A stretch of DNA of 31,845 nucleotides from a virus. Its lineage: Duplodnaviria > Caudoviricetes. Position 1 is the first letter of the stretch. Each line of letters begins with the position of its first letter. Location: positions 1 through 31,845 of the IMG/VR virus record IMGVR_UViG_3300042347_000063, one strand, 5' to 3'. Shown piece after piece: positions 3,177-23,105 of this stretch. The notes beneath the pieces are model-generated. The model saw only the letters and a program-made list of their open reading frames with translations. It made no database searches and was not told the origin of the DNA. A program made the translations under genes and the position numbers.

Positions 3177-3512
3177 TTATTTACCATAGTACCTTGCTAC
3201 TTCTTCTGGAGAAGCAATTCTTACAGCCTTATGGGTTACCCATTTGTCTGCATCTTCTCCAGTAACAATGTTATACCCTATCTTTAGGGTTCCTAGTCCG
3301 TTCCAAAAAATATTTCTTGTTGAATAAACCGCTGAGTTTTTTTCTTTTTTTTGTGGCTTTGAGTCAACACTTTCATTTGGTGTCCAACTAGCCAAAATTT
3401 CAAGAATTTCTAATTTTGTTTTAGAGTCAAACAATTCAATGTTTTTCTTTTTTGCATAGGCCTTTAACTCCATAACAGTTTTCTTAGACAATTCTTCCAT
3501 TGTAAAACTCAT
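3177..3512 (-). CDS. Small protein with an N-terminal Rho-N / HeH-LEM-like helical domain
   Basis: 'EELSKKTVMELKAYAKKKNIELFDSKTKLEILEIL' fits the L...tv.eLk..Ak..gI......K.eli pattern, common next to capsid genes. Has its own TGGTATAAT (3537-3545) and SD. Confidence 0.65.
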   Translation of the reverse strand: MSFTMEELSKKTVMELKAYAKKKNIELFDSKTKLEILEILASWTPNESVDSKPQKKEKNSAVYSTRNIFWNGLGTLKIGYNIVTGEDADKWVTHKAVRIASPEEVARYYGK

Positions 3513-3548
3513 GTTATCTCCCTATGCTCAATTGTAATTATACCAGAG

Positions 3549-3776
3549 TTATCTTCTTAAAGATCCTCTTAAAGTTTGTGGCCTTCTTATTCCTGAAGGA
3601 GTTCCAGACATTATTATATTTGTACCAAAATTAGCGGTAGGGGTACAGCCCAAAGCATTTGTTTCTGTGATAACCCCATTAGGTCCTGTTATAACAGTTC
3701 CCGTTGTTCCTCCCGCTGCAACAACACCTCCACCAGTATGTGTGTGCTCTTGTGTTGGATTTCCTGGATAAGACAT
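3549..3776 (-). CDS. 75-aa protein paralogous to the N-terminal arm of the major capsid protein
   Basis: SD AAGGAG upstream of the ATG; 22 of 49 residues identical in an ungapped manual alignment with capsid residues YPGSPT...TANFG. Confidence 0.75.
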   Translation of the reverse strand: MSYPGNPTQEHTHTGGGVVAAGGTTGTVITGPNGVITETNALGCTPTANFGTNIIMSGTPSGIRRPQTLRGSLRR

Positions 3777-3793
3777 TTATCTCCTTTATATGA

Positions 3794-3828
3794 CTAAGAG
3801 GGACAGATTTTACTCTGCCCCCCTTAAG
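3794..3828 (-). terminator. Stem-loop after the major capsid gene (terminator or mRNA-stabilising hairpin)
   Basis: Minus strand CTTAAGGGGGGCAGA-GTAAAA-TCTGTCCCTCTTAG, about 17 nt after the capsid stop; no U-tract. Confidence 0.6.
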
Positions 3829-3845
3829 CCATTGCTAAGTATTAA

Positions 3846-4988
3846 TTAGGAATTTGCTGCTGCATCTGCGTAAGCAACTGCATCAAGTTCTTCCCACTGA
3901 ATACCAAAGCGGATGAATACTGTGTATTCGATTGTGTCCTTCTTGTTGATGTATTCACGATTTACTGTGATATCACGCTGGAAGCCCCATACACGGTTCT
4001 GTGGGAATGTCAAGTCGACATATCCTGCAGGGTAGTAAGGTACTTCCATGACTTCTACTCCGAGAACACGAGTTGTACGTGCTCCACCGAATGTCTGTCC
4101 TGCGCCATCAAGGTATGACTGACGATTTGCCTCTGTGCCTGGACCCTTGTTAACAAAGGCTTCAGCGATTGCATCTGCAAGTGTACCGTTGTTCTTAACG
4201 ATTCCCTGGAATGCATCTGTACCTGCGTAGAACTTAAGATTGTTCTTAAGTGCACGGTACTTACGTGGCATTGCAAGAATAATATCCTGCATTACGTTTG
4301 TTGTCCAAGCATCATCAGCGACTGTTACTGCTGCTTCGTGAGCATCAGAACCATCTCCTGCTAAGTGGACGAAACCTTCCATAATTGAAAGGAAGTTGCC
4401 TGTTGAACCATCGCCGTTAATTGCGAGGTCTTCAATATCGTTAGCGAAAGCATTGGTCATCAAGCGAACTAGATGATCTTCAAGTGCTGCACCTTCAATA
4501 TTATCTTCAAGCGCTTCTGCTGAAACTTCCCAGTCAAGACGAATCTTCTTTGTAGTAAGTTCGACCTTTGTGAAAGTTGCACCAGCATTTGTGAAATCTG
4601 GCTGTGCCTGAGCAGCAGCACGGATTACACGCTCACCAACGTTGACCTTTTCAAGTTCCATGGTGTTTGCACGCATTGTAACTTTACGACCATCCTTGGC
4701 GAGAACTGTTGCATCCCACACGTAGTCGATGAAGCGACGAGCCTGCTCTGGTGCTAGAATACCACCTGGTGTTCCAGTTGGGTTTACAGCATTTGCGCCA
4801 GATGTTGATCCGAAGTTCGCTGTAGCAATGTTACCAAGCGAAGCAGCGGGTGAAAGATTACCGTTGGCATCTGTGGTTGTTGCACCACCGATAGCACCAG
4901 ATGCGAATGCACCGTCGCCGTTATGGGCGTGTGACTCGGTTGGTGATCCAGGATAATTCTTTACGATATCTGTATTTTGTTCCGACAT
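3846..4988 (-). CDS. Major capsid protein (HK97 fold)
   Basis: Start refined to ATG 4986-4988 (SD AGGAGGTGA). Motifs 'GGILAPEQARRFID', 'EVSAEALEDNIEG', 'DIEDLAINGDG' and 'LGVEVMEVPYYP'; lies after the protease/scaffold gene. Confidence 0.92.
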   Translation of the reverse strand: MSEQNTDIVKNYPGSPTESHAHNGDGAFASGAIGGATTTDANGNLSPAASLGNIATANFGSTSGANAVNPTGTPGGILAPEQARRFIDYVWDATVLAKDGRKVTMRANTMELEKVNVGERVIRAAAQAQPDFTNAGATFTKVELTTKKIRLDWEVSAEALEDNIEGAALEDHLVRLMTNAFANDIEDLAINGDGSTGNFLSIMEGFVHLAGDGSDAHEAAVTVADDAWTTNVMQDIILAMPRKYRALKNNLKFYAGTDAFQGIVKNNGTLADAIAEAFVNKGPGTEANRQSYLDGAGQTFGGARTTRVLGVEVMEVPYYPAGYVDLTFPQNRVWGFQRDITVNREYINKKDTIEYTVFIRFGIQWEELDAVAYADAAANS

Positions 4989-5017: not shown

Positions 5018-5566
5018 TTAGTTTAATAGGTCGGTTGATTTGAGGAAACGACCGCCCCATAGGGATTTCTGAACCTTTACAGGCTCAAACTGCACGATCT
5101 CGCCTAGATCGCCAGACTTGCGGAAAGCGGTGTCTGCAACTACGGCATCAACTCGCTTGCCAAACTCATTGAAGTTTCCTTTGATACTGTTAACTTCTCC
5201 AGTTACATTATCAAGAGACTTCGTTACTGCTGCTACCTGCTCGTGAAGAGACTTAACGGTTGCAGCGAGATCGCCAAAGGCATTAGTAAGAGAAGCGTTA
5301 ATTTCAGCAAGTGCCTTAGCAACTTCTTCTTTAACATCAGCAACTGCATTAGCAACTGCTTCTTCTGTCTTCTCTTCTTCTACTGGTGCTTCCTCTGCAT
5401 CAGTAGATTCTGCACTACCATCAACTGCTTCTGCTGCAGGTGCTTCTTCAGCAACTACCGCTTCTTCAGCGACTGCAGGAGTTTCAACAACTTCTGCTGG
5501 CTGTGCCTCTGGAGCAACCTCTGCATTTTCAACTGGAGTATCTAATACTTCTGTTGCTTCTGTCAT
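5018..5566 (-). CDS. Nested in-frame scaffolding protein (182 aa, internal start)
   Basis: SD AGGAGGT (5574-5580) 7 nt before an in-frame ATG (5564-5566, MTEATEVL...), exactly where the acidic/coiled-coil region starts. Confidence 0.65.
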   Translation of the reverse strand: MTEATEVLDTPVENAEVAPEAQPAEVVETPAVAEEAVVAEEAPAAEAVDGSAESTDAEEAPVEEEKTEEAVANAVADVKEEVAKALAEINASLTNAFGDLAATVKSLHEQVAAVTKSLDNVTGEVNSIKGNFNEFGKRVDAVVADTAFRKSGDLGEIVQFEPVKVQKSLWGGRFLKSTDLLN

Positions 5567-6319
5567 GTGGTTTACCTCCTTGTTAATCTTAGAAGTTCTA
5601 ATGCCTTTAGCACTATCAACTAAGAATTTTATCATGTCTGCTTTTTCAGAATCAGTTTTTTCAACAAAACCAATATTCTGCATCTCTTCTCCAGATACAG
5701 GACTAATCTGTGTTTCTTCTTCTGAGGTAACTACTATACCAGATTCCTTATCGTAAAATACGTTTTCTAGAACTGTTTCATCACCCTTAATAACATCAAC
5801 ACCATCTACTTTTTCAACAGACATTATGCTGGCAAATTGGTTGGCTGGGCTATCAACTAATGACAACTCAATAAGATCATAGTCTTTAATAATTCTAATT
5901 TGTTCATCTGACTTTTCGTCATAAGCATCGTCCCACTTGTTCATTCTTCCACCAATAGAAAAACCAGTATAAGTTCCATCTAGAACTTTTTCCCATGCAT
6001 CTTGTGCACCCTTAGAGATGTATGCAGAAACATAAACACCCTTATAAAACTTCTTTGATTCTGGATCAAAATACTTTTCTTCTTTAAATGAAACCATCTT
6101 GCCTACTGCTGATGGTTGATGCATTTCTCTAATATTCCCACGGAATTTTGCAAATGCATTCATAGATGCTTCTGTAGTAACAATATCGTTTTGCTTATCT
6201 AGGTTATCTAGAGATGCAAAACCTGAGACGATTCTTCGTCCTTGGTCTACTTTGGTAAGGGGCATTGATAGACGAACATTGTCGCCATCAGTCACCCAAG
6301 AAGCCTTATTTATTTTCAT
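5018..6319 (-). CDS. Prohead maturation protease (HK97-type) fused to a C-terminal scaffold
   Basis: 'RRIVSGFAS..NLDKQNDIV', 'REMHQ', 'YTGFSIGG' and 'ELSLVDSPAN' are herpes-like/HK97 protease motifs (catalytic His and Ser), followed by an E/A-rich linker and a coiled coil. Confidence 0.9.
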   Translation of the reverse strand: MKINKASWVTDGDNVRLSMPLTKVDQGRRIVSGFASLDNLDKQNDIVTTEASMNAFAKFRGNIREMHQPSAVGKMVSFKEEKYFDPESKKFYKGVYVSAYISKGAQDAWEKVLDGTYTGFSIGGRMNKWDDAYDEKSDEQIRIIKDYDLIELSLVDSPANQFASIMSVEKVDGVDVIKGDETVLENVFYDKESGIVVTSEEETQISPVSGEEMQNIGFVEKTDSEKADMIKFLVDSAKGIRTSKINKEVNHMTEATEVLDTPVENAEVAPEAQPAEVVETPAVAEEAVVAEEAPAAEAVDGSAESTDAEEAPVEEEKTEEAVANAVADVKEEVAKALAEINASLTNAFGDLAATVKSLHEQVAAVTKSLDNVTGEVNSIKGNFNEFGKRVDAVVADTAFRKSGDLGEIVQFEPVKVQKSLWGGRFLKSTDLLN

Positions 6320-6359: not shown

Positions 6360-7958
6360 TTATTGAGACGCTCTGCCTTCTCCTTGTGCATTTCTTCCAG
6401 AAACGGTTGCTGTACCATCAGATTGGCTGTTTGTTCTTTCTGTATCCCGTTGGCGATTGCCAGCCAAATTTGCTCTCGTGTCAGTTGCCTGCCTTGCTGA
6501 CATTTGGAATGGCTCTTCTCCATGACTAACCTGTGGCAAGTCAAGAACTTCACGGGCTTCGTTGGGAAGCATAATCTGAGTCTTAACGTATCTTTCAAGA
6601 ATTTGAGACTGTGCAATTTCGTCTGTAAGCGTCAACTCGTTAAACTTGAGTTCAAGAATGTCTGTCTTTTCACGGATTATCTTATTGACTATCTTTTCTA
6701 AGTGATGCTGGGCTGGTCTTGCAACCTGCTCCTTAAAGGTACGATCCTGTGCAAGTGCTGCTGCAATAGCAGAAGAGTCTGCGCCTCCAAGTTTAGATAT
6801 TGGTACCTGATGAGCAATTAAAATGTCATCACGATTTTGTTTTCTATATTCTTTAAATGATCCATCCTGGATACCATTTTCAATTGGCTCCATTTTAAAC
6901 TCAACCTTATTCTGATCTGTATCTCCAGGAAGTGGGATATATAGAGTTCTATGAGATTGAGACTTTAAACCTGTCTGCAAGAATCTGAACATTTTGTCTT
7001 CTGCATCGCCAGATAGTTGTGCTCCCTTTAGGGTAATCACATATCTTGGTACCGCCTTGTTTTCAAAATAATCAATGTTGTACTGTGATGCTAATTTATC
7101 TCCAATAAGAGATGGCAGAGCAGATACAATATCTGGAACACCATAAAAAGTGTTTAGTGGAGAGTATTCTTTAATATGAATAATCTCATTTGGACGAGAG
7201 TCATTTGTTACTGGGTTAGGATTGCTTGCTCCAAAGTTGCGGAAGTAAACAACCTTTTGGCCAATGATTTGCAAGAATCCATCATGCAGTCTACGTACAC
7301 GAACTGTCGTTGCAGGTATGTGTCCTATGTATCCAATATCTCCTTCAACATTTCTACCTACCTCAATAAAGCCATTTCCTGTTGCTTGAACATCTGTAAA
7401 AACTTTTTCCATAATCTTTGTAAATGAGTCATCATCATTTAGGCTTTCTAGCCAGTCACGGATCTCAATCTTCATTCTTTCTACACGCTTACGAGCACGC
7501 TTGACTTTATCCTCATCTTCACTCATTTCAAAGCGAAGCGATGTGCTATCTGTCATAGCAAAGTGGTAACCCAATCCAACAATATTTTCTACCTTAGCAT
7601 CAATTGCTGCGTGGTTAGCAAATGATGTATCATAAAAGTTTGCTAACTCATACATGTTGTATGGCGGAGTAATAACATCAAACAAACCATAACCATTACG
7701 ATATACAGTTCCAGGGTTAATCTGTTTAGATCCAGAGTCTTGTCCATAAGGCATTGCATTTGCTGCATCTAAGTATGCGTCATCTCCAATTGCCTTATTA
7801 ACAACTCTTGAAACTCTTCTTTTAAAATTTTGGTCTAACCCAGAATAATCTTTAAGCATTTCCCAAGACTTGATAAACGGGTCTTGGTCTTTAAATAAAT
7901 CTTCTTGTTCTTCTTGTGTATTTAGACTTGCGCCAATATATCTTTTTTCTTCACTCAT
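6360..7958 (-). CDS. Portal protein
   Basis: 532 aa; 'DVQATGNGFIEV', 'NEIIHIKEYSPLNTFYGVP', 'YFENKAVP', 'AHQVPISKLG' and 'MLPNEAREVLDLP' are HK97/PBSX-family portal motifs. Confidence 0.93.
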   Translation of the reverse strand: MSEEKRYIGASLNTQEEQEDLFKDQDPFIKSWEMLKDYSGLDQNFKRRVSRVVNKAIGDDAYLDAANAMPYGQDSGSKQINPGTVYRNGYGLFDVITPPYNMYELANFYDTSFANHAAIDAKVENIVGLGYHFAMTDSTSLRFEMSEDEDKVKRARKRVERMKIEIRDWLESLNDDDSFTKIMEKVFTDVQATGNGFIEVGRNVEGDIGYIGHIPATTVRVRRLHDGFLQIIGQKVVYFRNFGASNPNPVTNDSRPNEIIHIKEYSPLNTFYGVPDIVSALPSLIGDKLASQYNIDYFENKAVPRYVITLKGAQLSGDAEDKMFRFLQTGLKSQSHRTLYIPLPGDTDQNKVEFKMEPIENGIQDGSFKEYRKQNRDDILIAHQVPISKLGGADSSAIAAALAQDRTFKEQVARPAQHHLEKIVNKIIREKTDILELKFNELTLTDEIAQSQILERYVKTQIMLPNEAREVLDLPQVSHGEEPFQMSARQATDTRANLAGNRQRDTERTNSQSDGTATVSGRNAQGEGRASQ

Positions 7959-11996: not shown

Positions 11997-14030
11997 CTAA
12001 TATAACTTAATCTCACAAGCATCTGTAGAACAATATTTTTCTGACTCAGCATCAAGGTTATCATTGCCATCATAAATAGCAGACCAATCAATTTTCCCAA
12101 TCTTTCCTACATATGAGTTATATTCTTCTCTTGTGATTTCTGTATAAGGTTGCTGTGGATAAACCTTATCTCCCATTGGTAGGAAGGATACTGCCTTTAA
12201 CTGTCCCTCATACATGTTTAAGGCAGGAGCAATAAATTTCTTCTCATTTTCTTTGTCAAATGACAGAGTTACAGAAACACCATTATCTGACCAATACTTC
12301 TGGGCTGTTGCTGCCAAACCAATCTTTTCAAATAAACTTACCTGCTTCTCAGAACGCTTATGTCCTGATGCAACTGGGAAATAAACTACTTGTGTGTTTG
12401 CTGATACAAGGTCTGGTTCAACTTTATATCCCGCTGCTTTAAACAGGTGAAGCATTGGATCAGTATCGCCAAAGCGAATAGCACGAAGATAAAATTCTCC
12501 TCCAGGACCCCAGTGAACTCCAGGGGTAGCGCCAGAAAGCAATGACACAGATCCTGATGGCTTAACGGTGGTTACACGAACGGACTCACGAACACATAGC
12601 CATTCTGAATATGAGTGATCATATTGACGAATTGTGTTGTATCCTTCATCCATCCATTCACGGGTTGTCGGCAATCCGTGCTCATCAGCAAAGGCTGCAA
12701 TGCCTGTAAGTGATGTGCCAATACGACGATTTCTTTGCATGATACCGTTTGTCTGTTGCCAATGTGTTGGCATAAGAGTTACAGTCTTTCCATAAAGATA
12801 AGCAAACTTTAACGTTTTTAGGAAATCTTCTTTAGAGTCATGACGATTTAAATGTACCTCTACAAGAGTACAAAGTTCATATGATTCCAATGGCTGCTCT
12901 GCACAAGGATTGAAGCCCATGATACGAGCATCTTTATAGTCTGGAGCATCTGCAAGACGACCGTAATCTCTAGCAACACCAAGCCAGATAAAACCTGGCT
13001 CTCCATTGTCTGCAATTAAATCTACATAGTCTTCATATTTTGTTCCAACCTTAGCAGCAATTGAGTTATTGCTCATCCATGCCCAACCTGGCTTTTCTGG
13101 ATCATATGAATTTCTTTCTGGAAACACTTCTGGATTCTTAAGATTAATAAAACCACTATCTTCTGGTGTACCAAGTGCAAGGGTAGCAGAACGACGAACA
13201 TTTCCAGAAACAACGCAAGTACCAATAAGATTTACAATATCTACAATAGCACGGCTATCAAGTAGTTCTCCCGCTCTAGAGCCTACGACATTACGAATGC
13301 GGGTATGCAGATCAATAAGTGGTGCTGGACCGCTAGCAACCCCTCCAAAGCCCTTAATGGGTGCTCCTAGAGGACGGATTAGGTCATAATTAAACTCCTG
13401 TACCGCTTGATTTTGACGAAGAAATGAGTTGATCAAAAGACGAACAGACTCTACCCAGCCTTCACGGGTATCAGGGATTTCATAGACTGAGGCTGGCTCT
13501 GAAGGTGCATAAATAGACATTTGCTTGTCTTGTCCAAGGGTGTCAAATCCTACACCAATACCAAGCATAAGAGCATCCATAACCCATGCAAATAGGGCAC
13601 CTGGATCATTACGATCAATGTCACGAGTAGAAACCATTGCACAGTTTTGGAGGGATGCTGAGTTACGCTTCTCCATAGTCATAGGTGTACCAAATGCCCA
13701 GAGACCACGGCCTGGGGGGGTCCACTTTAACTCAAACATTCTTTGAAATGCTTCTTGAGCGGACTTCTGAGCCTTGTTGTCATTCCACGGAAGTCGATTA
13801 TCTTTAGCGTGGTTTTTCTGTACTGAATACATGCCCTCAATTACACGACGACAAACTTCATGCCAGCGTTCCTTTGTTCCGTCCTCTTTAACACGGGAAT
13901 AGGTACGAATAAACGTAATCTCTCCAAGTGAGTTAGAGCCTGCATCTGAGAATCCAAATGGTGCTGGAATCAGTTGATATTTATTAACAAAATCTTCTGA
14001 TAGACGAAATGAAAATACGCTTTCTGACAT
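11997..14030 (-). CDS. nrdJ: Class II (adenosylcobalamin-dependent) ribonucleotide reductase, monomeric RTPR-like type
   Basis: 'RTYSR', 'PPGRGLW', 'LQNCA', 'GNVRRSA', thiyl-radical loop 'NPCAEQ', 'ELCTLVE', 'TTVKPSGSVS' and C-terminal 'CSTDAC' redox pair. No NrdB partner and no intein seen. Confidence 0.92.
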   Translation of the reverse strand: MSESVFSFRLSEDFVNKYQLIPAPFGFSDAGSNSLGEITFIRTYSRVKEDGTKERWHEVCRRVIEGMYSVQKNHAKDNRLPWNDNKAQKSAQEAFQRMFELKWTPPGRGLWAFGTPMTMEKRNSASLQNCAMVSTRDIDRNDPGALFAWVMDALMLGIGVGFDTLGQDKQMSIYAPSEPASVYEIPDTREGWVESVRLLINSFLRQNQAVQEFNYDLIRPLGAPIKGFGGVASGPAPLIDLHTRIRNVVGSRAGELLDSRAIVDIVNLIGTCVVSGNVRRSATLALGTPEDSGFINLKNPEVFPERNSYDPEKPGWAWMSNNSIAAKVGTKYEDYVDLIADNGEPGFIWLGVARDYGRLADAPDYKDARIMGFNPCAEQPLESYELCTLVEVHLNRHDSKEDFLKTLKFAYLYGKTVTLMPTHWQQTNGIMQRNRRIGTSLTGIAAFADEHGLPTTREWMDEGYNTIRQYDHSYSEWLCVRESVRVTTVKPSGSVSLLSGATPGVHWGPGGEFYLRAIRFGDTDPMLHLFKAAGYKVEPDLVSANTQVVYFPVASGHKRSEKQVSLFEKIGLAATAQKYWSDNGVSVTLSFDKENEKKFIAPALNMYEGQLKAVSFLPMGDKVYPQQPYTEITREEYNSYVGKIGKIDWSAIYDGNDNLDAESEKYCSTDACEIKLY

Positions 14031-14091
14031 TTATTATTTACCTTTCATAGCAAAATTAAGTGAGTACTTCATAGTTTCTGAAGTAGTCTTA

Positions 14092-14100
14092 AGTATAGCA
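14092..14100 (-). promoter_or_regulatory. Extended -10 promoter (TGCTATACT) for nrdJ
   Basis: Just downstream of the terminator and about 60 nt upstream of the nrdJ ATG; the leader holds a TACTTCA...TGAAGTA hairpin and SD GAAAGG. Confidence 0.6.
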
Positions 14101-14106
14101 TAGATT

Positions 14107-14138
14107 TAAAAAGAAAAACACGCTCAAAAAGAACGTGT
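14107..14138 (-). terminator. Intrinsic terminator after the sulfotransferase gene
   Basis: Minus strand ACACGTTC-TTTTT-GAGCGTGT followed by TTTTCTTTTT; a second AT-rich hairpin lies at about 14155-14185. Confidence 0.6.
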
Positions 14139-14207
14139 AAATCTTTTGTTTAGGGTTAGTACTTTTGTTTTTTTAAAGTATTAACTACTAATATAAATAT
14201 CTATAAT

Positions 14208-15047
14208 TTAAAAATCTTTCCCTTTAACTTTCATCAAAGAGTTATCTCTCCAAAATTCCATATTAGAGTACTTGTGTTTAATGTAGTCAGAAAGAATGTC
14301 TACTGATGTTGACGATATTGACAAAGACTCTCTAACATCGTGCAAGTTCTCAGGATAGCCAAGATCTATATCGTTATCTAACTCTATCTTTTTTATGTTA
14401 TTAAAGTCATGTTTATATTCTGGTAACTCTAAAAATTTATAGATACCAGACATTGTTTCTTGTGGTTTTAATACAAGATCATTGTATTCAACAATATGAA
14501 AAATATCCTTGTTTTCTAGATAGAATGCGGATGCAACAGAAACTAGTGCTCTGTCTATATCCCCATTTATTTGCATAAGATATTCACATATACAGTCTTC
14601 ATCAGAACGATAAATATTAACAAAAGCATTATTACTTATAACGTCATTTCTTAAACGATCAGAATCCAGTTTAATAAATGAAGCAAGAATTTCTAAAATA
14701 TCACGAACTGTGACTATAATCTTAGGACTTTTTGTAATATATTTTTTTATTAAATCAAGATTTCCTGGCATTCCCCAGTCTTTTTGCCTATCAACTATTA
14801 TAGGCTTTTCTACATTTTTATAAAATGTATCAAAGAAAGAATAAAGTAGTTCTGACCCTCTGTCCTTATTTTCTTCATTTCGTTTTATACTATTTAAATA
14901 ATTATACGACTTAGAATACTCCCACATCAAATCAAGAAGTGGGCTGAGTGGTGTGCTATAAATATTTGGATTTTGATTTAATATTGCTGATAATAGTGTA
15001 TTTCCACTTCTTGGTAAACCCGCTAAAAAATAATAAGTTTTTTTCAT
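14208..15047 (-). CDS. PAPS-dependent sulfotransferase family protein
   Basis: N-terminal 5'-PSB loop 'GLPRSGNTLLSAILNQNP', 3'-PB-like 'KIIVTVRDILEILASF', and 'VEYNDLV..P.ETM..IY.FL'. AT-rich, with its own leaderless promoter. Confidence 0.85.
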   Translation of the reverse strand: MKKTYYFLAGLPRSGNTLLSAILNQNPNIYSTPLSPLLDLMWEYSKSYNYLNSIKRNEENKDRGSELLYSFFDTFYKNVEKPIIVDRQKDWGMPGNLDLIKKYITKSPKIIVTVRDILEILASFIKLDSDRLRNDVISNNAFVNIYRSDEDCICEYLMQINGDIDRALVSVASAFYLENKDIFHIVEYNDLVLKPQETMSGIYKFLELPEYKHDFNNIKKIELDNDIDLGYPENLHDVRESLSISSTSVDILSDYIKHKYSNMEFWRDNSLMKVKGKDF

Positions 15048-21441: not shown

Positions 21442-21857
21442 TATGCAGTTACATCCTCTAAGACTGTCACCTTACCCTGAGCAACGGTCCAAACAATAGC
21501 GTCTGAAGGAAGAGATAGTTCAATGTCAAAAATATCATTTGTTTGAAGACTAGCAGTTTGTGCTGCTGTTAGAGAAACTGTAAACTCTCCATCTTCATCA
21601 TCAGCATCTGCTGCAGGTGTTAATGTGTATATAAGTGTTGCAGTGTCTGTTATCTGACCAGGGACAACTGGGCTTGTTGTTGGTCTTTTAATCTGCATAG
21701 ATATTGTCCAGTCAGGTATGTTTAATGGCTGACGAGCATCATCTGTTACGTATACCCGAAATGCTGCGGTATCACCTTTTACAAATGTCCAATTAACAAA
21801 TGGTGGGGCCTCTCCAATGTCATATGTTCCAGAACCACTACCTCTATAAGTTGCCAT
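21441..21857 (-). CDS. BppU-like beta-sandwich baseplate/structural protein (paralog 1)
   Basis: Start refined to ATG 21855-21857 (TAATG overlap). Contains 'VNWTFVKGDT..F.V', 'VSLTAAQTASL', 'FDIEL' and 'TVAQG.V.V..DVT'. Confidence 0.6.
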   Translation of the reverse strand: MATYRGSGSGTYDIGEAPPFVNWTFVKGDTAAFRVYVTDDARQPLNIPDWTISMQIKRPTTSPVVPGQITDTATLIYTLTPAADADDEDGEFTVSLTAAQTASLQTNDIFDIELSLPSDAIVWTVAQGKVTVLEDVTA

Positions 21858-22387
21858 TACGATAACCCTGCTTTCAATGATCCCCAAGTTCCGTTACCCT
21901 TTGGCTGACCCACAAGAATAATTCCACTTGATGCGTTTTTCTTTAAAACAATTCCTACTGCTCCAGAACCTGTAACTGGAATTGTCGCTGTTAATCCACC
22001 ACCATTAGCAACATATAATTTATTACCAACATTGTAAGCGTTAGTATTAATATTTGAAAATACACCAGACAATAAAACAACTCCATCGGAACTGTTTGAT
22101 ATTGCTGTTGTTGCTAGTCCTACTACTGGAAATGTTGATAAGTCATCAGAGTCACATTTTGTAACTGCAGGTTTAGATGTTCCATACCCTGAAATATAAA
22201 CTGGATCACCTTTAGCAATAGAGGATCCACTATTATTTGTTACTTCAAGTGTGTGGTATGCGGGACCAATGGTTCCTAATAAAGACTCAACAGTTTCAGC
22301 CAATGACTGAATATCCTCGTGAACATTTACTGGATCACTGGATAGTGGATAAGGTATATCATAGTTTGTTGTTGAACCTGTAGCCAT
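21857..22387 (-). CDS. Minor virion protein with a DUF2190/cement-like C-terminal domain
   Basis: Start refined to ATG 22385-22387. The N-terminal 'TTNYDIPYPLSSD' anchor is typical of actinophage minor tail proteins; 'NNSGSSIAKGDPVYI...GLATTAI...LYV...GGLT' follows. Confidence 0.55.
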   Translation of the reverse strand: MATGSTTNYDIPYPLSSDPVNVHEDIQSLAETVESLLGTIGPAYHTLEVTNNSGSSIAKGDPVYISGYGTSKPAVTKCDSDDLSTFPVVGLATTAISNSSDGVVLLSGVFSNINTNAYNVGNKLYVANGGGLTATIPVTGSGAVGIVLKKNASSGIILVGQPKGNGTWGSLKAGLS

Positions 22388-22473
22388 AGTATTTACCATT
22401 ATACCACTTCATGCTTACAGTTTTATAACAATTTAATAAAAATGTCAAAAGTTGGACTTTTGGGGCAAAAACA

Positions 22474-22482: not shown

Positions 22483-22532
22483 TGGTAGTAACACCAGATA
22501 ACTGGTGCTTTTGTTTCTAGGAGGTTTATTTG

Positions 22533-23105
22533 ATGAGAAGAGACAAGAAGGCTTGGATTGGAATCCTATCATTAGTTGGATTACTAGCACCTATAAGTAA
22601 TTCTGCTAACGCAATATCTAATACAACTGAAAATAATTTATTGAGTAATAAGTCCGTGACTGCCCCTGCCGACCCTAAGTCGGCCTTTTTGGTTTCTAAG
22701 CCAAAAAAAGTTTCAGTTTTGGCAAAGTATAAAAATGCTTCGTCTTTAACAGATTACGAACTCGTTGAATTATTGAAGGCTGTAGGCTTTACTGGAAAGG
22801 GTCTAAAGACTGCTTGGGCTGTAGCCAAGGCAGAATCAAACGGAAGACCTTTTGCATTTAATGGAAATGCTAAGACTGGAGACAGTTCTTACGGGGTATT
22901 CCAAATAAATATGATCGGAATCTTGGGACCTGATCGTAGAGAAAAATTTGACCTAAACGCTAACGCTGAGTTATTTAACCCAGTAAAAAATGCAAAAATT
23001 GCATTCCACATGACCAAGGGTGGAACAGACTGGAAGTCTTGGAAATATGCTAAAACTGCCCCTGTACAGAGATGGTTAAAGAAATTTCCACATGAGCACC
23101 TATAA
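22533..23105 (+). CDS. Secreted lysozyme-like / lytic transglycosylase (SLT-type) protein
   Basis: Signal-peptide-like N-terminus (MRRDKK-hydrophobic-ANA), catalytic 'AVAKAESNG', 'SYGVFQIN', 'LFNPVKNAKIA', 'DWKSW'. Start is ATG 22533 (or TTG 22530). Confidence 0.85.
   Translation: MRRDKKAWIGILSLVGLLAPISNSANAISNTTENNLLSNKSVTAPADPKSAFLVSKPKKVSVLAKYKNASSLTDYELVELLKAVGFTGKGLKTAWAVAKAESNGRPFAFNGNAKTGDSSYGVFQINMIGILGPDRREKFDLNANAELFNPVKNAKIAFHMTKGGTDWKSWKYAKTAPVQRWLKKFPHEHL

Follow-up and report, generated by a model that had tools for sequence, protein, structure and literature searches.

A free-standing copy of the arm of the major capsid protein, encoded directly after the capsid gene in a lineage of lake phages

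The window analysed in this study is a fragment of a virus record with a length of 31.8 kb (31,845 nucleotides). Its head module is located on the minus strand and comprises, in this order, a portal gene, a protease-scaffold gene, the major capsid protein (MCP) gene, an ORF of 75 aa, a gene of 111 aa and a weak match to a head-tail adaptor. The following features are of importance here:

6360-7958, minus strand: portal gene of the head module.
5018-6319, minus strand: prohead protease-scaffold gene (phrog_9427, PF04586), whose C-terminal tail carries conserved K-S motifs.
3846-4988, minus strand: MCP of the HK97 fold (P0002, 380 aa; phrog_1623, E 6e-73; 43% to MCPs of Streptomyces phages; Foldseek).
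4743-4958, minus strand: MCP residues 11-82, the enlarged N-terminal arm and source of the duplication, following the conserved Lys10 (putative K|N maturation site).
3791-3832, minus strand: GC-rich hairpin after the MCP stop, terminator-like and with a weak U tract; it occurs in genomes both with and without the ORF.
3781-3785, minus strand: Shine-Dalgarno sequence AGGAG of the ORF, recognised from the sequence.
3549-3776, minus strand: the 75-aa stand-alone paralog of the MCP arm (P0001), identified by homology, family and selection.
3717-3773, minus strand: tip of the ORF (approximately residues 2-20), YPG-spacer-HxH-x-G-x-G, which co-varies with the tip of the cognate MCP arm.
3537-3545, minus strand: extended -10-like site TGGTATAAT, just past the ORF stop and before the next gene, of presumed function.
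3177-3512, minus strand: conserved downstream gene of 111 aa with a weak Rho_N-like N-terminal domain, located directly after the MCP in relatives lacking the ORF.

The MCP was assigned to the HK97 fold by its structural model and by its position after the portal and prohead protease genes. An AlphaFold2 model from 103 sequences reached a pLDDT of 68 (42 in an earlier run with 42 close sequences). In Foldseek it matched HK97-fold capsids, the best hit being DT57C/T5 (E 2.8e-14), with P4/P2 and HK97 also among the best. PF05065 is precomputed on many MCP homologs; the Pfam search of P0002 itself gave no match and sequence searches of the PDB revealed no relative of the MCP. The nearest annotated MCPs belong to Streptomyces phages such as BillNye, with 43% identity over residues 75-366. 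Moreover, WhiB, a marker of actinobacterial phages, is present in all five long contigs of relatives (90-114 kb). From WhiB and the kinship with Streptomyces phage MCPs we infer an actinobacterial host. MCPs of this lineage are also found on contigs of metagenome-assembled genomes with unrelated labels (L353-L359, among them Aquiluna, Polynucleobacter and Flavobacterium), which are probably mis-binned phage DNA. In some relatives the Rho_N-like N-terminal domain of the 111-aa gene is missing or replaced by acidic low-complexity sequence, and a similar-looking gene is located 3' of the MCP in BillNye. Further along the window, a lysozyme-like SLT_3 gene (22530-23105, plus strand) lies opposite to the surrounding minus-strand structural genes, and the structural region at 11997-15047 (minus strand) contains a B12-dependent ribonucleotide reductase and a sulfotransferase.

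Within the arm the AlphaFold2 model has a pLDDT below 50 at residues 1-40, 45-54 and 70-78; this is described as usual for N-arms (bioRxiv 10.1101/2022.09.09.507160). The distance from the conserved Lys to the GGxLxPEQ motif is about 65 residues in this lineage vs about 15 in BillNye-like MCPs. Therefore, the sequence comparison indicates that the ORF is a copy of the canonical arm together with an enlargement specific to this lineage. A sister group of MCPs (L296-L345, e.g. L320, L333 and L338) has a separate, shorter enlargement of the N-arm and extended C-termini (373-420 aa), and lacks a free copy of the arm. In a more distant set of 88 loci (1.5-kb flanks, 5 kb for BillNye) a search with the arm profile matched only MCP arms (22) and found no short ORF frame. 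Lys10 is nearly invariant in 42 MCPs and, by eye, also present in distant relatives. In HK97 the MCP is cleaved at K103/S104 (PMC10275583). In 70 distinct protease-scaffold tails of our lineage Ser follows 151 of 259 lysines vs a background of 7%, mostly within two conserved motifs. Two such K-S motifs, both strongly conserved, are located in the C-terminal tail in the window (5018-5150, minus strand) together with a WGGRFL motif; they are candidates for self-cleavage sites and for a capsid-binding end, respectively. By analogy to HK97 and these K-S motifs, the MCP is likely cut at K10|N11. The mature MCP would then begin with NYPG at the very position at which the ORF product, after removal of its Met, begins with SYPG. 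The common start would speak for the ORF product as a mimic of the mature arm and against a protease decoy.

The ORF runs from 3776 to 3549 and the MCP from 4988 to 3846 on the same strand, with the YPG of the MCP starting at 4955. A preliminary description of this DNA had proposed that the ORF aligns without gaps to the capsid N-terminus, and we found exactly this alignment with 22/49 identities. BLASTP extended the match to 30/74 (E 1e-13), reaching PQTLR in the ORF and PEQAR in the MCP. The similarity also withstands composition-shuffled controls: the local score of 142 compares with shuffled means of 36 and 34 (maximum 72 for the mean of 36), and none of 10,000 shuffles of the ORF and none of 10,000 of the arm reached it. 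A profile-profile comparison of the ORF family with the MCP gave a probability of 99.4 (E 5.7e-21) over MCP residues 11-82. Longer family members (78-85 aa) retain a GPNAVNPSGTP stretch that is partly lost from the ORF in the window, from which it follows that the whole arm was copied. The Shine-Dalgarno sequence and the arginine-rich tail reported earlier are likewise general: an SD-like motif precedes the ORF in 95 of 96 pairs of MCP and ORF, and the last 12 residues contain on average 4.2 R/K and no D/E. This basic tail follows an Arg that replaces the MCP-invariant Leu78 in most ORFs, which is a sign of functional divergence. Because of this replacement the 3' end of the ORF would not be able to dock exactly as the arm does. 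The ORF lacks the HK97 core and is thus not a full-length MCP paralog of the T4 gp24 type. It also lacks the leader and the Lys of the putative cleavage site and starts one residue past the latter, so that it does not resemble a delta-domain, a scaffold or a protease substrate. In a clade of short-form ORFs additional cysteines that are absent from the arm occur, two in 18 and one in 13 of 81 distinct sequences; they are possibly disulfide or metal ligands.

The family comprises about 200 protein clusters. Searches identified 39 family proteins among 40 candidates and a profile 213 among 2368, of which 120 were inspected. The ORF was present in 201 (redundant) of the loci L001-L265 plus the window; 111 of these are distinct at the DNA level and yield 96 distinct complete MCP-ORF pairs; the remaining fetched loci are led by an MCP without the ORF, represent matches to MCP arms or end at contig edges. 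L098 was left out of the pair counts, as the N-terminus of its MCP could not be read in frame, perhaps owing to an assembly error, and L109 was left out of the trees. In all pairs the ORF is located directly 3' of the MCP, 63-78 nt past its stop. Neither Pfam for P0001 nor the PHROG families for 120 members gave a match, GenBank phages and Rfam yielded none either, and the ORF matches no described cement or decoration family (beta-tulip, Ig, Soc, gp4) by sequence or profile. The best hit in an Atlas search was unnamed (score 0.86), and the PDB search returned nothing but a designed repeat protein, of which no stretch passed by itself. A search of 1.84 billion proteins for fusions and distant homologs gave 16 matches, namely four family members, two partial chimeras, one frame-broken MCP start and nine multi-stretch repeat matches; two of the latter were inspected and judged unrelated.

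The preliminary description had named a dN/dS near 1 as evidence against a functional paralog. As dN/dS climbs with synonymous saturation, we relied on 31 disjoint, unsaturated pairs (pS 0.05-0.35), in which pN/pS was well below 1: the ORF reached 0.19, the arm 0.21 and the core 0.13. The ORF differences in these pairs amounted to 344 synonymous changes at 1705 sites and 196 non-synonymous changes at 5186 sites. Over all 1195 pairs with pS 0.05-0.5 the median dN/dS was 0.34, with 58 pairs at or above 1, and it rose with the pS bin from 0.12 over 0.13 and 0.20 to 0.43. The ORF is a real gene under purifying selection, and together with its place in the head module it thereby shares two features of the minor capsid protein class. 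When 42 ORFs were placed in one tree with their 42 arms and with 17 arms from genomes lacking the ORF, the ORFs fell on one side of a branch with an SH-aLRT support of 99; a tree of 26 pairs supports the ORF branch with 100/98, with only 74 usable columns. The subtrees of arms and ORFs mirror each other. These trees fit a single old duplication of the MCP arm. Repeated duplication, with non-HxH arms grouped with their own ORFs, is disfavoured (AU p 0.04).

The ORF is optional. Among 80 MCP-led loci 25 contain it, 50 do not and 5 were too short to be scored. L032 and L033 lack the ORF next to an MCP that is 100% identical to that of the window, and no copy was detected elsewhere in the five contigs without the ORF that were searched as a whole, one of them complete. 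On a core tree of 124 rows its presence changes 13 times, 8 of these changes being forced by supported branches. Alleles are exchanged as well: between the window and L009 the core has a pS of 0.03 and the ORF of 0.46. Absence or frameshifting in relatives had been named beforehand as observations against the reading. The ORF is indeed absent from about two thirds of the scorable close relatives, but in the four junction pairs examined it is cleanly deleted and not frameshifted.

A further claim of the preliminary description was that the hairpin between the two genes would keep the ORF product sub-stoichiometric. The hairpin (about 3791-3832) itself is real with -29.4 kcal/mol, a z score of -3.57 and none of 200 shuffles as stable, and a strict terminator scan did not call it. 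However, it is not specific to the ORF, as its strength is alike in variants with (median -25.5 kcal/mol, n=99) and without the ORF (-24.6 kcal/mol, n=35). Hence, the hairpin is a general terminator-like element after the MCP which did not arise for the ORF; it may still limit its expression. The ORF represents a clean cassette of SD, reading frame and stop between the tail of the hairpin and the TGnTATAAT site of the next gene. The latter site is found in 97 of 99 variants with and in 35 of 35 without the ORF; upstream of the ORF a TATAAT site was found in none of 99 variants. The codon adaptation of the ORF to the MCP set is 0.31, the lowest of 10 genes of the module, vs 0.70 for the MCP. 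Parts of the region are contained in 24 metatranscriptome runs, mostly labelled as freshwater or lake. In four of these runs contigs cover MCP and protease and nothing below about position 3810; most of the pieces stem from relatives, and the next gene is uncovered as well.

The two copies agree at their tips. In all 96 pairs the tip type and the spacer from YPG to HxH are the same in the ORF and in the arm of its own genome (61 with a five-residue spacer, 28 with a four-residue spacer and 7 without HxH). Pairs fetched later agreed in 11 of 11 cases; for 8 of the 19 new ORFs the fetched DNA did not include the arm. On two trees from whose alignments the tip had been left out, tip type changed four times, each time jointly in both copies. 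Within an otherwise five-residue clade, L171 shows a shared deletion of one residue in both copies, and HxH-tipped ORFs are nested in the non-HxH clade (the P0094 group and P0070). At the residue two positions before HxH, Glu/Gln in one copy is never paired with Val/Ile in its partner; 14 pairs differ there via a third class. The middle and the 3' part share the phylogeny of the tip and thus served as internal control. Amino acid identity over the first 20 residues or so was 0.55 for cognate vs 0.44 for non-cognate combinations, compared to 0.23 vs 0.22 in the middle and 0.45 vs 0.44 in the 3' part. Synonymous (third-position) identity at shared residues of the tip was 0.54 vs 0.52. For the whole ORF the score was 129 with its own arm and 111 with other arms (69 pairs, not corrected for relatedness). 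Moreover, all 84 MCPs accompanied by the ORF have the K-NYP tip vs 32 of 40 without it. Sign tests on independent pairs comprised 2-3 pairs and were not significant. These comparisons suggest that the tip of the ORF and the tip of the arm in the same genome change together, on the basis of about four independent events. The preliminary reading is thereby partly supported: the ORF is a conserved, selected paralog of the arm that co-varies with it. Recent gene conversion as source of the matching tips is disfavoured by the lack of a cognate synonymous excess; an old conversion whose synonymous sites are saturated is possible.

We see about an even chance that the ORF encodes a minor capsid protein of low copy number which occupies arm sites left vacant, perhaps those of the portal vertex. 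We read the low copy number from the codon adaptation of the ORF, the lowest among the module genes, and from the lack of an upstream TATAAT site in 99 variants. According to this reading, the ORF would be transcribed at a low level by read-through of the hairpin. Cleavage of the MCP after Lys10 would give mature arm and ORF product the same beginning. The free arm would then dock in arm-binding sites of the shell that were left empty, the surroundings of the portal vertex being their most plausible location. If both tips docked in equivalent sites, a change in one would compel a change in the other. The basic tail may contact DNA or an acidic surface. In T4 the mature N-fist of 25 residues is described to touch four subunits after expansion (PMC9958956). 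Contacts lost with the missing penton at the portal vertex are reported to be supplied by PVP in P74-26 (PMC12407722) and by gp57 in crAss001 (PMC10172136), and the head completion protein of DT57C is described as a dodecameric adaptor, not as a filler of the portal vertex (PMC10713586). Placing the ORF product at the portal vertex specifically is a guess from geometry and such precedents, which we make tentatively and regard as possible at best. An arm-derived protein that follows the tip of its original residue by residue, and does so throughout a large family of phages from lakes, would illustrate a simple origin of accessory capsid proteins. The coupling also points out which part is functional in an arm that is otherwise unpredictable.

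The same coupling and low expression would be predicted if the free arm acted only transiently, occupying arm sites of capsomers or proheads during assembly or expansion without being kept in the virion. The dispensability of the ORF fits such an assembly modulator, and the N-arm of HK97 is described to move into sites that the scaffold occupies at first (PMC10275583). We nevertheless consider it unlikely, since the ORF has neither a scaffold-like helix nor a cleavage site and its start at the presumed mature terminus better suits a component of the mature shell. Another reading makes the ORF product a decoy for an intracellular factor that recognises the arm tip, either a host defence sensing capsids or a capsid-hijacking factor of a satellite. 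CapRel is reportedly a defence of the former kind. A decoy has to match the epitope of its own genome, as the tips do, and its patchy presence and swapped alleles would be in line with this function. The ORF is apparently late and less expressed than the MCP it should shield, however, conservation extends over its whole 70-85 aa and not the tip alone, and signs of diversifying selection are absent; this option therefore appears quite improbable to us.

Cement genes are typically encoded immediately 3' of the MCP. A general cement or decoration protein paired with MCP arms at many or all quasi-equivalent sites would explain this location of the ORF, HxH could form a shared metal site, and LP2 of phage Milano is described as high-copy (PMC10491603). 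Against a cement, to which we assign only a small probability, speak the lowest codon adaptation in the module behind a strong hairpin and the loss of the ORF beside identical MCPs. Furthermore, a separate candidate cement gene of 180 aa is located far from the MCP (21857-22399, minus strand), as judged from a weak match to Phage_cement_2 (PF09956) with an E of 6e-8, above the cut-off. The matching tips could also reflect a silent DNA cassette that donates sequence to the arm by gene conversion, or an extension of the MCP by read-through or frameshifting. Both are largely refuted and very improbable. The former conflicts with purifying selection at the protein level, the SD motif in nearly all pairs, the same codon at only 8 of the 22 residues shared in the window and, again, the absence of a cognate synonymous excess. 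The latter would need a conserved frame and an open spacer. The MCP-ORF gaps fall into all three frames (35/33/28 of 96), which excludes a conserved read-through fusion, and the gap in the window contains an in-frame stop. The preliminary description also proposed that the ORF product might lure the prohead protease as a decoy. It shares sequence with the region beside the putative cleavage site; we give this role next to no weight, given that leader and conserved Lys are missing.

The preliminary description knew of no such system, and we found no stand-alone paralog of an MCP arm in open-access full texts; subscription papers and supplements could be relevant here. Closest among the described cases is LP2 (gp128) of Agrobacterium phage Milano, a 38-aa copy of the capsid-binding strand of LP1 (gp16) (PMC10491603). 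Similar to our ORF, LP2 is a small free copy of the N-terminal binding strand of a capsid protein, and it occupies quasi-equivalent sites. In contrast to the ORF, it copies a decoration (linking) protein instead of the MCP and is described as disulfide-linked as well as abundant (PMC10491603). A PDB sequence search revealed no relationship between the two. T4 gp24 is likewise an MCP paralog encoded downstream of the MCP and specialised for particular sites, but it is described as a full HK97 fold and as essential, bypass mutants aside, whereas the ORF consists of the arm only and is often lost (PMC9958956). A further small accessory capsid protein of actinobacteriophages is gp4 of Patience and Adjutor, which is unstructured when free and stabilises asymmetric gaps. 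Unlike the arm copy, gp4 becomes helical on binding and forms bridges across split hexamers, and the available sections of the report do not present it as a paralog of the MCP (PMC11965321). PVP of P74-26 and gp57 of crAss001 are also small and compensate for contacts lost where the portal replaces a penton (PMC12407722, PMC10172136), and the N-arm of PVP joins beta-sheets of the MCP and touches DNA (PMC12407722). These known fill-ins are not described as copies of the MCP or its arm in the available parts of both reports.

A parallel may exist in T4 itself. The hypothetical protein gp61.1 (54 aa; L493:2467-2631) aligns to residues 57-93 of gp23 with 17/37 identities (E 6e-9), spanning the maturation site and the N-fist region. 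By this alignment, gp61.1 appears to be an independent free copy of the mature N-terminal tip of an MCP. It differs from the ORF in that it has no similarity to P0001, is encoded far from gene 23 and includes the cleavage site; the available text of a review on the T4 head does not mention '61.1' (PMC9958956). That tailed phages repeatedly evolve 'spare arm' proteins, free copies of the mature arm which complete the network of arms at the site where a portal takes the place of a penton, with the copy here locked in step with its original at the His-x-His tip, which possibly binds metal, and with gp61.1 as an independent case, is a speculation we rather doubt. If true, however, spare arms would be an unrecognised convergent answer to the mismatch of symmetry at the portal vertex; how shells compensate for the subunits missing there is only now becoming clear. 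An uncultured lineage is hard to test directly, whereas the parallel of gp61.1 is testable in a model phage.
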